A DNA stretch of 64,000 nt, taken from NCBI GenBank assembly GCA_026397405.1, contig JAPLUW010000001.1, positions 107,138-171,137 of the forward strand. Direction: 5' to 3'. A program made the position numbers and the translations under genes. The stretch's first letter is position 1. Every line of letters begins with the position of its first letter. The stretch comes from Candidatus Adlerbacteria bacterium (lineage in GTDB: Bacteria; Patescibacteriota; Minisyncoccia; Phycocordibacterales; SBAW01). Under the pieces are notes generated by a model, which saw only the letters and a program-made list of their open reading frames with translations, was not told the DNA's origin and searched no databases. Shown here piece after piece: positions 42,898 through 63,215 of this stretch.

Positions 42898-44719
<1,822 letters not shown>

Positions 44720-45079: not shown

Positions 45080-46075
45080 TCAAGCCTGGGTTTTAGGCAG
45101 TTTCTGTTCTAATTTATAGGCATTTCCGTGCCTCAAAAGCCCTATGTACGACTGTACGGTAGGACTGTCTCCTTCAAGCCCATGGGTGCATTTGAACATC
45201 CTTCGCTTAGTACTAGTTCGCAGTACTCGGTGGTCTGGGAAATGAACCCAACCTAAAAAGTCGACGCCGGAAGAAATAGTCTCTATTGATACTTTGTTCG
45301 GATGTAGTGTAAGGCGTAATTCGTTCCATAAAAAATCTCTCACCTGGACTAGCATATCTTCAAGCCATTTCTTGTCACAAGACAGAAACACAAAATCGTC
45401 TGCATAGCGGATATAGTATTTCACTTTGAGTTTATGCTTCACGAACTGGTCGAACTCGTTCATGTATATGTTTACCAAAAGCTGAGAAGTGAGGTTACCT
45501 AGTGGCAGACCTTTGCCTGGCGCAGTGCTATGGAAGCTCTCTACCACTCTCCTGACAAGACAGAGAATGTCAGTGTCTGGGATACGCCGGTCGAGTATCT
45601 TGTAAAGGATTTTTTGATCCACTGACGCAAAGAATTTCCGTATATCACATTTGAGCACCCAAAGTGTTTTTGTATTGTTACAGCTCGCTTTGGCGAAGTA
45701 TTTCTGGAACGCTTTTATGGCACGGTGCGTTCCTTTATACTTTCGGCAAGAGTATGAATGAGCGATAAATGTCTTATCAAAAAATGGATAGAGTTTCCTG
45801 TAAAGCGCGTGATGGAGCAGTCTATCCCGCACTAAAGCTTTATGGATATTTCTTGGTTTAGGATCAGAAATGTTGAAAGCGTAATACCCGCCATGGACAT
45901 ACGTTTTACTTTTAAGCTCCTCATGGAGAGCAACCATATTATCGAAAAGTTTGTATTGGAATTCGCGCACGTCTTGCTTACTACGTTTGCCCTTTAGGAA
46001 TTCGCGCCATGCGGCAAGCAGATTTTCGGGAGAAATGATATCTTCATATGTATGGTTGAAACAACTTTTACTCAT
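45080..46075 (-). CDS. Diversity-generating retroelement reverse transcriptase
   Basis: RT motifs including YADD (YIRYADDFVFL) and the DGR-specific LGNLTSQ (I/LGxxxSQ) motif. Size is about 330 aa. The ORF track extends it to a TTG at 46102 through a G9 codon run; the ATG at 46075 is preferred. Confidence 0.85.
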   Translation of the reverse strand: MSKSCFNHTYEDIISPENLLAAWREFLKGKRSKQDVREFQYKLFDNMVALHEELKSKTYVHGGYYAFNISDPKPRNIHKALVRDRLLHHALYRKLYPFFDKTFIAHSYSCRKYKGTHRAIKAFQKYFAKASCNNTKTLWVLKCDIRKFFASVDQKILYKILDRRIPDTDILCLVRRVVESFHSTAPGKGLPLGNLTSQLLVNIYMNEFDQFVKHKLKVKYYIRYADDFVFLSCDKKWLEDMLVQVRDFLWNELRLTLHPNKVSIETISSGVDFLGWVHFPDHRVLRTSTKRRMFKCTHGLEGDSPTVQSYIGLLRHGNAYKLEQKLPKTQA

Positions 46076-46131
46076 TCTCCTGAACGTACCCCCCCCCGAC
46101 AATTTGGCAACCGAAACTTATCCCCGTCGTA

Positions 46132-46485
46132 TTGAAATTAAAAGACGCCTATGGTGTCTGGCAGCACTATCTATCTGATTTCCCAAAAGCAAAACGTTTT
46201 ACACTCGGCTCAAAAATAGACGACGTATTTCTTAATGCAATTGAATATTGTTTTCTTGCAAGCTACAGCTCACAGGGTGAAAAATTGGTTCTACTTGATA
46301 GATGTATTGCGCGGACTGACCTTCTTAAGCTCTTACTTCAATTGGCGTGGGAAATTAAAGCTGTGGACAACAAAAAATATATCAATTTGTCCGAATATCT
46401 CACTGAAATAGGAAAGATGCTTGGGGGTTGGCGAAGACAAGTTATAAACAAAACTCCCGTCCACACAGGACGAGAGAAATCGTGA
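46132..46485 (+). CDS. avd: Avd-like four-helix-bundle protein (accessory variability determinant; PF05635 / 23S rRNA IVS-protein family)
   Basis: 117 aa. It matches the family pattern (KDAYGVWQ...FPKAKRFTLGSKIDDVFLNAIEYCFLAS...LSEYLTEIGKMLGGW). It has a TTG start and is divergent from the RT gene. The TR begins 6 nt after its stop. Confidence 0.7.
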   Translation: MKLKDAYGVWQHYLSDFPKAKRFTLGSKIDDVFLNAIEYCFLASYSSQGEKLVLLDRCIARTDLLKLLLQLAWEIKAVDNKKYINLSEYLTEIGKMLGGWRRQVINKTPVHTGREKS

Positions 46486-46490
46486 CGGTG

Positions 46491-46619
46491 GCGAACGGCG
46501 AGGAAGCGGTAGTTGCCATTCCAGTCGTTGTCCCACCAGTTGAGGTTGAGGTTACGCTTGCGGTCGTTCCGGCCGAGGTACGGAACGTTGCGGTTGTCAC
46601 CGATTTGCGCGACAGAACC
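46491..46619 (-). repeat. DGR template repeat (TR)
   Basis: 129 nt. It is identical to 46967-47095 except at 22 positions. At every one, this copy has T on the plus strand (A on the minus, coding strand) and the other copy has C, G or A. Confidence 0.85.
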
Positions 46620-46856: not shown

Positions 46857-46880
46857 CCGGCGCATGCAAGCATGCGCCGG
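46857..46880 (-). other. Perfect 11-bp inverted repeat hairpin downstream of the DGR target gene/VR (terminator and/or DGR homing-associated stem-loop)
   Basis: ccggcgcatgc-aa-gcatgcgccgg lies 48 nt 3' of the target stop codon. On the minus strand a moderately U-rich tract follows it. Confidence 0.5.
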
Positions 46881-46927: not shown

Positions 46928-47584
46928 TCAAGCGGCCGAGGACTGCTCGCCCGTCTTGACGACAGGGCGAACGGCGAGGAAGCGGCAGCCGCCATACCAG
47001 CCGCGGCCCCACCAGCGGAGGCGGAGGTTACGCCCGCGGCCGAACCGGCCGAGGCACGGAACGTAGCGGAAGTCACCGATCTGCGCGACAGAACCGAGGC
47101 CGATTATTGGGTACTTGCGCTGCTCCTCGGGATACTTCTCCCCGAAGGCGAGCAAGTGCTCAATGAGCGCAGGCTCCCAGCCTTCGGCCTTCATGGCCTC
47201 GACCACCTTCTCCGAAGAGATGTCGCGGTCGAAGTGGAAGAGCCGAGCCTCGGCGTACACGGTAACCTTACCCATGCCCGCACCCTTGAGCGGAAACCGC
47301 TTCGCAGTGATGTCGCTATTGGTCCAGTCATAGCGACCAAAAGCGACCATGTCCTCAAGCGTCCGGCCGTAGTCCACATCGAGGGTGAACGTATCGGTCG
47401 GCATAGCGACGCCGAGCTTGAGCGCGGCACGGATGGCGGTACGGTCGAGCACAGCGTCCTTGTCGCAGAGGTCGGCGAAGATGCCGCTTGCAAGAATTTG
47501 CTGCCAACGGTCGGGTGTCATACCCTTCTCGTCGAACAGCTTCATCTGAAGGGCCAGTTGGCCCGATGTCATCATCGTATCCAT
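46928..47584 (-). CDS. DGR target protein carrying the variable repeat at its C-terminus
   Basis: ORF 46928-47674. The start was chosen at MDTMMTSGQ (ATG 47584), which has an AAGGAA SD 8 nt upstream. The last roughly 45 aa (GLGSVAQIGDFRYVPCLGRFGRGRNLRLRWWGRGWYGGCRFLAVRPV) are encoded by the VR. The gene is about 62% GC, against about 42% for the RT gene. Confidence 0.75.
   Translation of the reverse strand: MDTMMTSGQLALQMKLFDEKGMTPDRWQQILASGIFADLCDKDAVLDRTAIRAALKLGVAMPTDTFTLDVDYGRTLEDMVAFGRYDWTNSDITAKRFPLKGAGMGKVTVYAEARLFHFDRDISSEKVVEAMKAEGWEPALIEHLLAFGEKYPEEQRKYPIIGLGSVAQIGDFRYVPCLGRFGRGRNLRLRWWGRGWYGGCRFLAVRPVVKTGEQSSAA
46967..47095 (-). repeat. DGR variable repeat (VR)
   Basis: A copy of the TR with substitutions only at TR-adenine positions. 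The invariant GC-rich 3' end (coding strand CCGCTTCCTCGCCGTTCGCC) is consistent with an IMH-like element. Confidence 0.85.
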
Positions 47585-47774
47585 TGGGACATTTCCTTTT
47601 GGATGGCTTTCCCTTTTGTGGGTTGGCCGTGCTAGCGGACGAAGCAAGGAATATTCCTTTTCGCCATAGCCCAAAAATGCCTACTTAATATTAAATAAGC
47701 GTCTATGGGCTATGGCGATTTCGCGAACGTGTAAAAGAACCACCTCTAATTATACACCATTTTAGGTAATTATG

Positions 47775-49243: not shown

Positions 49244-50572
49244 TTATTTATTGATTCCCGAACGCATCAAAAAGCGCCCAACACCCGACTCGGTTTTAAG
49301 CCCAAGTGCCAATAGGAAGGTGCGCGAAATAATAATTGCCGAAAGTAGAGAAATGATAACACCAAGCCCAAACACAAGTGCAAAGCCTTTGATAACAGAC
49401 GTTCCCATCCAAAACAAAATAACAGCAACAATAACGTGCGCAATGTTTGAGTCCCGTATTGCACTCCACGCACGTGAAAAACCGTGACGTATCGCCACTT
49501 CGGCTTTTTCACCGTCGGCGATTTCTTCTTTTATGCGCTCTGCAATAAGCACGTTTGCATCAACCGCCAAACCAACCGAAAGGATAAACCCTGCTAACCC
49601 TGCCGCAGTAAGTACTACAGGAATAAGTTTAAAAAGCGCGAGCATCAAAAGCGAATAAATTACCAGAGACACAACCGCCACCAACCCTGGCAAGCGATAC
49701 CAAAGAATCATAAAAATCGACAAAATAAGAAACCCGAGCAAGCCCGCGATAACGCCCGCATGAGCGGCCTGGTCGCCAAGTACAGCACCAATTGACTGCG
49801 TACTGTCGAGCGTAATAGGCACTGGCAAGGCACCAAGGTTTAAGTTGGTTGCAAGTTCCTTTGCCGCCTCGGCGGTAAAGCTGCCTGAAATGACTGCACT
49901 GCCATCACTAATTTTTTCCTGAATAACCGGAAGCGAAAGGAGCTTGCCGTCTAAAAATATACCTAGTTCTCGGCCAACATTTTTGCCTGTAATGTCGGCA
50001 AACAACTGAGAACCTTCTGTATTAAACGTAACTTGCACCACAGGCGCAGTTGCGAGCGCACCGCTGCCGCCGTTACCAAACTGGAGCGCCGCAGTTGAGA
50101 TATATTTTCCTGTAAGTCCTGTGTCTTCAAATGCAGCCGGGTTGACTGTGCCGTCTGGCAATGTAGTGGACGCTTGTGCACCTTGTTTTAACAATCTAAA
50201 TTCGAGCGTCGGTGTCTGGCCTATCATTGCAACCGCCTGGTTTACGTCGGTCACACCGGGGAGTTCAACTATTAGACGGTATGCACCGGTACCGAGGGCG
50301 CCTGCCTGTTGGGTTTGTACGACCGGCTCGCCCACACCAAAGGCATTAACGCGGCGTTCAATGACCTGCTGCAAAGCAGACATCGAGTCGTTAATTTGTG
50401 CAGCTGGGACCTTGCTTGTGTCGGCGTTGTATACCAAGTGTGTACCGCCCGAAAGGTCGAGACCGAGCTTAAACGCAAAGCGGCTTTCCGGAACATTGGT
50501 CTTCCATACAAAAAACCCGACAGCCAGGGCGGCAACCAAAACTAGTACAGCGCTATAACGCATTGCAAACAT
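49244..50572 (-). CDS. secD: Protein translocase subunit SecD
   Basis: 442 aa with an N-terminal TM, a large periplasmic domain (LGLDLSGGTHLVY) and a C-terminal 5-TM bundle. Confidence 0.9.
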   Translation of the reverse strand: MFAMRYSAVLVLVAALAVGFFVWKTNVPESRFAFKLGLDLSGGTHLVYNADTSKVPAAQINDSMSALQQVIERRVNAFGVGEPVVQTQQAGALGTGAYRLIVELPGVTDVNQAVAMIGQTPTLEFRLLKQGAQASTTLPDGTVNPAAFEDTGLTGKYISTAALQFGNGGSGALATAPVVQVTFNTEGSQLFADITGKNVGRELGIFLDGKLLSLPVIQEKISDGSAVISGSFTAEAAKELATNLNLGALPVPITLDSTQSIGAVLGDQAAHAGVIAGLLGFLILSIFMILWYRLPGLVAVVSLVIYSLLMLALFKLIPVVLTAAGLAGFILSVGLAVDANVLIAERIKEEIADGEKAEVAIRHGFSRAWSAIRDSNIAHVIVAVILFWMGTSVIKGFALVFGLGVIISLLSAIIISRTFLLALGLKTESGVGRFLMRSGINK

Positions 50573-57615: not shown

Positions 57616-57730
57616 GTCCTGGCGACTACCTACTCTCGCGGCCGGTAAAGGCCACTACCATCGGCGCAAATGAGCTTAACTTCCGTGTTCGGAATGAGAA
57701 CGGGTGTGACCCCATCGCCAAGTCACCAAG
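57616..57730 (-). rRNA. rrf: 5S ribosomal RNA
   Basis: Reverse complement reads CTTGGTGACTTGGCGATGGGGTCACACCCGTTCTCATTCCGAACACGGAAGTTAAGC...GTAGTCGCCAGG, about 115 nt, 3' of the 23S. Confidence 0.9.
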
Positions 57731-57851: not shown

Positions 57852-61158
<3,307 letters not shown>

Positions 61159-62954: not shown

Positions 62955-63215
62955 GCAAAAGCAGAGGCGAACGCAAAGTTGACAAAATGAACAAAAAAAA
63001 CCTACTCAAAGAAAGAGTAGGCGAGGGAACAGGGGCGGAGAGAAGAGGGAAGTAAAGAGCGGGGGAGAAACATGTAGGTGGTAGGGGGGGGTGAAAAAAT
63101 GAAAGGAGGAGAGATGGAATAGAGAGGTGAGAGGAGGAAGAGAGATGAAGGATTAAGAATAATAAAGGAGGAGGAAATAATAGGAGAAGTAGCGAAGAGT
63201 CGGTACGAAATAGGT
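62955..63215 (+). repeat. Polypurine (GA-rich) low-complexity tract, about 260 nt, including a G8 run
   Basis: The plus strand is almost exclusively A/G from about 62955 to 63215 (e.g. ggaggagagatggaatagagaggtgagaggaggaagagagatgaaggattaagaataataaaggaggagg). It is intergenic, between the rplL terminator and the start of the 62345-62923 gene. Confidence 0.6.

Follow-up and report, generated by a model that had tools for sequence, protein, structure and literature searches.

The diversity-generating retroelement (DGR) of Bordetella phage BPP-1 (mtd-avd-TR-brt) features a reverse transcriptase (RT) together with the accessory factor Avd, the template repeat (TR) plus a variable repeat (VR) differing adenine-specifically, and a VR located at the 3′ end of the target gene. 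In Bordetella, Avd represents the obligatory partner of the DGR RT. The regulation of DGRs is largely unknown, and unrestrained retrohoming should be costly. For bacteria of the Candidate Phyla Radiation (CPR), 90% of the DGRs were reported to feature architecture B3, namely the order TR-(avd)-RT in which avd is encoded by the reverse strand (Wu et al. 2018, NAR 46:11; PMC5758913). A DGR of this kind resides in the 64,000-nt stretch of the Candidatus Adlerbacteria contig JAPLUW010000001.1 (assembly GCA_026397405.1) analyzed here, the full length of which is referred to as the window. It resembles the BPP-1 element in all the components listed above, and its order of target gene with VR, TR, reverse-strand avd, and RT fits the B3 definition, B3 DGRs having the same gene order and the same reverse-strand avd. 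At the junction of the diverging avd and RT genes, the window carries a run of nine C residues (G9 in the sense of RT). Comparison with related loci indicated that this tract probably serves as an ON/OFF switch of avd translation, by which DGR mutagenesis would be gated.

The opposite orientation of the two genes, with RT on the minus strand and an Avd-like gene on the plus strand, had been claimed in an original prediction for this stretch and was corroborated by Pfam searches. The minus-strand gene (45080–46075) matched RVT_1 (6e-23), and the plus-strand gene diverging from it matched PF22296 (bAvd, 1e-12). The window RT was 100% identical to an RT recorded at NCBI under ‘Candidatus Adlerbacteria’, belonging to the CPR/Patescibacteria lineage, and its homologues in CPR number in the thousands. 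The TR (46619→46490) and the VR (47095→46966) form a 130-nt repeat with 83% identity. All 25 of the 25 internal differences are changes from a TR adenine to any base in the VR when read on the minus strand, confirming the predicted placement of the TR adenines on that strand. The VR lies inside the 3′ end of a minus-strand open reading frame (ORF; 46928–47590) representing the target gene. Accordingly, the window features an adjacent RT, an adenine-confined TR/VR pair, a VR at the 3′ end of its target, and avd, as found in DGRs; the presence of a TR/VR pair was verified for the window and for one of its relatives (L097). The TR had been expected to start 6 nt after the avd stop; the homology boundary was found 4 nt past this stop (46485).

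To place the locus in a wider context, 80 loci from GTDB species genomes and 80 loci from JGI metagenomes, encoding RTs with 59–74% identity to the window RT, were compared. Among the 139 loci with sequence available upstream of RT (window included), avd was immediately adjacent to RT and divergent in 138. The lone exception was L072, where the only avd match (L072:1643–1951) was located on the same strand as RT, approximately 1.5 kb upstream. Divergence of avd from RT, regarded as unusual in the original prediction, is the rule for this clade and already known, being the B3 layout of 90% of the CPR DGRs (PMC5758913).

A simple-sequence repeat (SSR) occupied the avd/RT junction in 135 out of 138 related loci. 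In most cases it was poly-G, always on the RT-sense strand (126 loci; G6–G14, mode 9–10), while (GT)n was found in three loci, tetranucleotide repeats with CTGG, TGGC, or TTCG units in five, and a heptanucleotide repeat, (TGATTGC)11, in one (L024). Furthermore, one additional population (P0062) carried (CT)n. The repeats other than poly-G were 17–78 nt long, the repeats of all types were G/T-rich on the RT-sense strand, and the unit length was never a multiple of three. The L024 repeat is open in the avd sense and contains TGA in every frame in the RT sense. The run in the window, stated in the original prediction to be a C9 tract at 46089–46097, indeed measures exactly 9 nt and is the sole G/C run of at least nine within the 64 kb. 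In the 711 kb flanking the related loci, only 3 G/C runs of at least eight were detected, compared to more than 110 at the junction. What is conserved at the junction is repetitiveness at a fixed place and not the sequence itself, which is the signature of a site kept for instability. We are highly confident that the tract represents a conserved, hypervariable repeat tied to the 5′ ends of avd and RT; its conservation and its length polymorphism were observed directly. The features of the junction are as follows:

46089–46097, no strand assigned: C9 (plus strand) or G9 (RT sense), SSR and hypermutable site, with a homologous repeat in 135/138 related loci.
45080–46075, minus strand: DGR RT gene, 331 aa, ATG start at 46075, with an RVT_1 match (6e-23) and an N-terminus agreeing with homologues that start about 5 aa before the motif F-x-H-x-Y-x-D-I-I-S.
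46083–46088, minus strand: proposed −10 element of RT, TACGTT (TAnnnT), 7 nt before the RT ATG, conserved in relatives and implying a leaderless RT mRNA.
46105–46110, minus strand: putative −35-like hexamer TTGCCA, read from the sequence, 16 nt upstream of the RT −10 element, the spacer being AATTGTC plus G9.
46036–46044, plus strand: proposed extended −10 element of avd, TGA-TATCTT, antisense in RT codons 11–14, as suggested by synonymous-site constraint.
46052–46054, plus strand: inferred avd start ATG, antisense of the RT His8 codon CAT, as suggested by the His8 codon bias and peptide conservation.
46052–46135, plus strand: 27-codon out-of-frame ORF from the avd ATG at C9 (avd OFF), obtained by translation.
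46099–46485, plus strand: conserved Avd body in the frame of 46132, with a PF22296 match (1e-12) and a conserved peptide upstream of 46132.

Starting 1–3 codons past the tract, the loci share the conserved peptide x-(L/I)-L-P-V-L-(Q/E)-K-V-K...Y-L-L-W, the codons of which vary synonymously; its version in the window subtype is T-I-W-Q-P-K-L-I-P-V-V-L-K-L-K-D. Between the tract and this peptide, ATG, GTG, and TTG are absent in roughly a third or more of the loci. Since the Avd peptide is conserved from the tract onwards and many loci have no start codon in between, avd is likely to start upstream of the tract. TTG 46132 was dismissed as the avd start, the corresponding codon being TTA or CTC (Leu) in relatives and the conserved coding sequence extending further upstream. 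With this codon, the idea of a 56-nt control region between the two starts had to be abandoned, as it depended on TTG 46132, and the comparative data place the avd ATG at 46052–46054 inside RT. Likewise, the tract is probably not part of a non-coding intergenic region, but situated inside the 5′ part of the predicted avd frame, beside the proposed RT −10 element.

Support for a start within the RT gene came from synonymous sites of RT, the constraint on which is a direct observation. His8 was encoded by CAT in 103/107 loci, whereas only 58% of the remaining His codons in these genes were CAT (Fisher 1e-18). Codon 12 ended in T in 98% of the loci, the neighboring codons 6, 10, and 11 doing so in only 47–68%, and codon 13 ended in C in 79%. 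These positions belong to a TGnTAnnnT-N7-ATG site on the avd strand, of which the part TAnnnT-N7-ATG was present at the equivalent position in 92 of the 138 loci, in 82 of them together with TGn; an N8 variant was found in subtypes whose RT has a shorter N-terminus. In the window, the site reads TGA-TATCTT (46036–46044), CATATGT, and ATG (46052–46054). These results suggest that avd is a leaderless gene with its extended −10 element and its start, ATG 46052, inside the RT gene. The predicted avd and RT transcripts would overlap by 24 nt, each promoter being embedded in the other gene.

Because the putative avd promoter and ATG lie inside the RT gene, beyond the tract, the tract would be translated within avd, and because the avd frame runs from ATG 46052 through the tract into the Avd body, the tract length would set the avd frame. 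The consequences for the frame can be read directly. With C9, as present in the window, avd is out of frame and a 27-aa ORF ends at TGA 46133–46135; C10 would give a 144-aa Avd (MVETTFTHSPERTPPPTIWQPKLIPVVLKLKD...), and C8 and C11 give 41–42 aa. When Avd was scanned against Pfam in its extended 144-aa form, it gave the same domain match as before, adding no support. The transcription start sites, the use of ATG 46052, the loss of Avd function in the OFF frames, and the rate of switching are, by contrast, matters of inference. Database calls for avd vary within a population (111, 114, 117, 124, 129, 137, 139, or 153 aa, or none), tracking the tract length (L084–L093, L097–L105). The annotation of avd in this clade is unreliable, and current calls miss the inferred ATG overlapping the RT 5′ end; a gene finder that shuns 5′–5′ overlaps is suggested as the reason.

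On the side of RT, the ATG was located exactly 13 nt after the tract in 44 relatives. The first six bases after the tract were T (44/44), A (39/44), three unspecified bases, and T (42/44) in these loci, followed by 7 nt up to the ATG; T, A, and T at these places make up the invariant core of a −10 hexamer. In total, TAnnnT abutted the tract in 57 out of 126 loci, compared to 3.8% expected, and the corresponding 5′ end in the window reads G9, TACGTT, CAGGAGA, and ATG. The same geometry is common elsewhere in the window, where TAnnnT was found 6–8 nt before the ATG in 15 out of 63 long ORFs versus 4.1% of all ATGs. For the window ORFs, the hexamer was often preceded by GG, and motifs resembling the Shine-Dalgarno (SD) sequence were rare. 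Examples of leaderless-type starts (often GGTAnnnT) are the minus-strand ATGs at 50572, 48332, 52479, 21570, 17322, 8093, and 6181. Leaderless mRNAs seem to be used to a large extent by this Adlerbacteria genome. As the −10 core lies only seven bases before the ATG, the RT mRNA would be leaderless, and RT presumably uses the leaderless start ATG 46075. The view that both genes use TTG, or an ATG with a poorly spaced SD, gave way accordingly: both look leaderless, with TAnnnT 7 nt before the ATG, and the spacing of an SD is irrelevant in a genome where the leaderless TAnnnT-ATG geometry occurs commonly and SD-like motifs only rarely. TTG 46102, which would place G9 inside the RT ORF, was rejected as the RT start, since homologues begin at the equivalent of the ATG and an in-frame start ahead of the tract is missing from most relatives.

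Length variation of the tract was followed within populations, defined as contigs whose RTs are at least 97% identical; 11 populations comprised two or more contigs. The tract was polymorphic in 6 of these 11 near-identical populations. Population P0014, consisting of ten contigs from different samples with identical RT (72% identical to the window RT, with the same junction subtype as the window), featured G9 in eight contigs, G10 in one, and G11 in one, and the remaining 110 nt upstream were identical but for one single-nucleotide polymorphism (SNP). When translated from the proposed ATG, G9 is OFF in all eight contigs, G10 is ON (138 aa), and G11 is OFF. In P0055 (seven contigs), G11 was found five times (ON, 134 aa), and G10 and G12 once each (both OFF); over 3.4 kb, the only differences besides the tract were the VR and two SNPs. 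Between the samples of this population, 6–13 VR substitutions were counted (L097–L103, positions 180–305), which indicate recent DGR activity, and its majority tract allele, G11, is in frame. In P0062, a single CT unit (tracts of 25 and 27 nt) was all that distinguished the contigs over 3.4 kb. Scored as GA tracts, the longer one (26 nt) is ON (153 aa), and the one shorter by a unit (24 nt) is OFF. The remaining polymorphic pairs were G11/G8, G8/G10, and a CTGG repeat of 41 nt or 37 nt, the 37-nt tract being ON (L122) and the 41-nt tract OFF (L020). Hence, the frame flips between ON and OFF within four populations.

Two loci without a repeat have kept the avd ATG motif (L019 and L063), and both are exactly in frame. 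In L063, the run is replaced by ACC CCG CCG CCG (T-P-P-P), a synonymous interruption that would lock the phase. The population of the window itself, comprising the window and two Logan contigs, was 100% identical over 3.7 kb, including C9 and the VR; the VR, diversified relative to the TR, was identical in all three contigs. The presumption that the homopolymer is prone to slippage and could act as an on/off switch is therefore favored by the repeat in 135/138 loci and by its varying length among near-identical contigs. Of the length polymorphism sought in other strains, the part concerning relatives was borne out (6/11 related populations vary), and the part concerning the window population was not, this being invariant.

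We propose that the CPR-type DGR has a contingency locus of its own in the C9/G9 tract, which gains and loses units by slipped-strand mispairing. The locus combines a repeat long enough for instability (G/C runs of at least 7–8, or several units), a 5′ position in a predicted reading frame, and polymorphism among near-identical genomes of related populations, as known for contingency loci. According to this model, avd and RT would be head-to-head leaderless genes with overlapping 5′ ends, the avd promoter (TGnTAnnnT) and ATG being placed within RT codons 8–14 on the opposite strand. The avd frame would run from ATG 46052 through the antisense of RT codons 8–1 and the RT −10 element, continue as poly-proline across the C tract, and enter the Avd body. 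In the window, C9 would thus correspond to OFF (27-aa peptide) and C10 to ON (144-aa Avd). If Avd is obligatory here as in Bordetella, targeted hypermutation would become a heritable, reversible, and stochastic ON/OFF trait. Since the tract lies just upstream of the RT −10 element, its length may also tune RT transcription. For the CPR DGR clade in general, the chances appear evenly divided that targeted hypermutation is phase variable through a repeat in a leaderless avd, with most cells or populations being OFF and a minority diversifying the target, as a form of bet-hedging built into the element and not peculiar to this genome.

Several findings weigh against this model. Among the three contigs of the window's own population, no tract polymorphism was found, all being C9, and short reads may be assembled with wrong homopolymer lengths, which does not account for the cases with di-, tetra-, and heptanucleotide units. 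Only 23 out of 92 scorable loci (25%) were in frame and 69 were OFF, so that an excess of in-frame states across species was not found (33% expected by chance); an earlier test likewise gave 34 observed versus 34.3 expected. Selection for avd ON is accordingly not evident, which fits a mostly-OFF switch, but equally a tract without a translational role. Moreover, OFF loci might make a shorter Avd from internal starts (in the window, TTG 46132), or through slippage of the RNA polymerase or the ribosome on the run. The two putative promoters and the avd ATG are proposed from conservation only, the exact TAnnnT-N7-ATG motif is missing from 46/138 loci, and a simple sigma-70 scan called neither of the proposed promoters. 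Furthermore, 22 loci encode an RT without ATG, GTG, or TTG between the repeat and the F-x-H-x-Y-x-D-I-I-S motif (e.g., L030, L045, L057, L079, L130, and L162), 12 of them being out of frame as assembled. In these, the RT start may lie upstream of the tract, placing the repeat in both ORFs, with poly-Gly being read in RT. Details also differ between subtypes.

Other explanations for the tract were considered alongside the proposed control of the avd frame. The tract could work as a volume control, in that it mainly determines how far the −35-like hexamer stands from the RT −10 element (16 nt with G9, 17 nt with G10) and tunes RT transcription, or the balance of the two face-to-face promoters, instead of the avd frame. 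This would agree with TAnnnT abutting the tract in 57/126 loci, the ATG exactly 13 nt past the tract in 44 loci, and a distance between hexamer and −10 element of 16–18 nt in 31/42 loci. Tract length was, marginally, inversely correlated with the non-repeat part of the spacer (Spearman −0.31, p = 0.046), the hexamer of the window subtype (TTGCCA or TTGCGA) matches the consensus at 5/6 positions, and the G10 runs of L013 abut −10-like hexamers of other genes. However, repeats of 24–78 nt (tetra- and heptanucleotide units, (GT)n, and (CT)n) cannot form a 17-nt spacer, and the ‘−35’ sequence of the main type, TGGYAA, is the antisense of conserved avd Leu-Pro codons. Compensation was not significant in a variance test (p = 0.08), and the promoters of this genome resemble the extended −10 type (GG/TGn-TAnnnT), for which a −35 element is usually dispensable. 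A spacer effect replacing the control of the avd frame is therefore considered unlikely; as an added effect, it is compatible with the avd-frame switch.

It is quite improbable that the C run constitutes a site of constant low-level decoding, at which programmed transcriptional slippage or ribosomal frameshifting yields a fixed in-frame fraction and the DNA polymorphism is incidental. Repeat units of 2, 4, and 7 nt at the same site do not support such stuttering of the polymerase, slippage is best documented on A/T and not on C runs, and the loci without a repeat are exactly in frame; all this has to be set against the 75% of assemblies that are out of frame and yet have diversified VRs (e.g., the window), and the fact that runs of at least nine are slippage sites for RNA polymerase. 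Very little probability is assigned to a non-adaptive hotspot or structural element, i.e., a tract kept as a barrier, as an R-loop or G-quadruplex element between colliding polymerases, or as a tolerated low-complexity linker, with length changes being neutral. An ON fraction no better than chance and the G/T-richness of all repeat types on the RT-sense strand would be in accordance with this idea. Nevertheless, the unit was replaced several times with its position and its non-multiple-of-three length retained, strong synonymous-site constraint acts on the start codon and promoter of the frame containing the tract, and (GTTC)n and (GATTGCT)n are not G-quadruplex formers. Finally, poly-G artefacts of two-color chemistry or homopolymer miscalls represent an extremely improbable source of the tract. 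Homopolymers of 10–12 are error-prone in short reads, and the poly-C runs at a contig end of L135 do look artefactual, but the tract occurred at the same internal position in more than 130 independent assemblies from many studies, with identical flanks, and where the site holds di-, tetra-, or heptanucleotide repeats, these vary in steps of a full unit.

Apart from the junction, the comparison also bears on the transcript containing the TR. A hairpin followed by a T-run is located directly 3′ of the TR in the RT sense (46476→46445), overlapping the avd 3′ end in antisense. An equivalent hairpin and T-run were present in 112 out of 130 relatives, where the stem sequences differ and complementarity is kept, the consensus being roughly CTCTCCC...GGGAGAG-TTTTGTTTT (related loci L004–L186). 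This hairpin probably terminates the TR RNA or has a structural or priming role in it. As the hairpin and T-run are conserved directly 3′ of the TR, the TR RNA probably represents a separate short transcript that is convergent with avd and not co-transcribed with RT, the conserved structure inside the avd 3′ end thus arguing against the TR and RT being transcribed together as in Bordetella. The remaining features of the element are as follows:

46445–46476, minus strand: hairpin and T-run directly 3′ of the TR, antisense to the avd 3′ end, a likely terminator or structural end of the TR RNA.
46490–46619, minus strand: TR, 130-nt repeat, with 25 differences, all at TR adenines.
46966–47095, minus strand: VR at the 3′ end of the target gene.
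46928–47590, minus strand: DGR target gene, about 218–220 aa, with a C-terminal VR and without a Pfam hit.
46857–46880, minus strand: GC-rich 10-bp hairpin and T-run about 50 nt past the stop of the target gene.

The hairpin at 46857–46880 is a possible terminator of the target gene or, alternatively, the GC-rich inverted repeat downstream of the VR that is needed by some DGRs.

Further observations were made in the surroundings of the element and in one relative. The 16S rRNA gene is located directly downstream of the DGR RT, unlinked from the 23S–5S pair, which is approximately 13 kb away; a group I intron (Rfam RF00028, 62 bits) interrupts the 23S gene. The coordinates of the rRNA genes and the intron are 43269–44719, 57617–57730, 57857–61155, and 58184–58383. 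A purine-rich (GA-rich) low-complexity stretch of about 200 nt (63000–63200) was found between an rplL-like gene and the next minus-strand gene, and a G8 at 63084–63091 is the only other long G/C run in the window. The related locus L013 features two more G10 runs (L013:3404–3413 and L013:5253–5262), each just upstream of the ATG of another gene; the first abuts TATAAT 6 nt before the ATG, and the second is followed by a weaker TAnnnT match. Judging from L013, poly-G tracts beside promoters may be more widespread in CPR.

If Avd is gated by the repeat, the DGRs of the CPR clade, nature's most abundant group of cellular DGRs, would carry a simple genetic ON/OFF switch. This would explain many inactive-looking DGR loci in metagenomes, make the tract length modulo 3 a sequence-only predictor of DGR activity, and correct the avd annotation across the clade. 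Going by the searchable literature, CPR bacteria would thereby have their first reported contingency locus. The terms ‘homopolymer’, ‘poly-G’, ‘promoter’, and ‘start codon’ are absent from the text of Wu et al. 2018 (PMC5758913), in which the junction repeat, the 5′ overlap, and the frame dependence are not described, and Roux 2021 contains no homopolymer, SSR, or phase-variation terms. No paper linking DGRs or Patescibacteria with homopolymers, SSRs, or phase variation was found in the searchable literature, an earlier mention in Paul et al. 2017 (Nat Microbiol 2:17045) being possible. Apparently, a known type of switch on a known element, general to a very large clade, has gone undescribed.

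In the BPP-1 DGR, avd, TR, and brt share one orientation, with brt preceded by the spacer RNA that follows the TR, whereas avd in the window is inverted, convergent with the TR and head-to-head with RT. Furthermore, unlike in BPP-1, the TR RNA of the window seems to end at its own hairpin, and a hypermutable repeat would sit in avd. With regard to the repeat, the closest parallels are the loci of Campylobacter jejuni, hmbR/hpuA of Neisseria meningitidis, and the tetranucleotide loci of Haemophilus influenzae, where an ORF carries, close to its 5′ end, a G/C tract of 8–13 nt or a tetranucleotide repeat that changes by whole units between close strains and flips the frame. The tract lengths of the window clade agree with those reviewed for Campylobacter (PMC8355987). 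These pathogen loci are host-associated and mostly control surface structures or restriction-modification genes, whereas the control proposed here would act on an accessory factor that belongs to a mutagenic retroelement, in CPR bacteria living freely or as episymbionts. In H. influenzae, (TA)n is located between the divergent, overlapping promoters of hifA and hifB, and in N. meningitidis, poly-G/C lies between the −35 and −10 elements of porA and opc. The window tract resembles these two cases in being a single tract shared by two divergent genes and placed between a −35-like hexamer and a −10 element of one of these genes. It differs from them in that it would also be translated in the other gene, and in that the long variants cannot be spacers. 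Moreover, the predicted promoters are not back-to-back, but face-to-face with overlapping leaderless transcripts, an unusually compact arrangement in which each of the two leaderless promoters would be embedded in the other gene.

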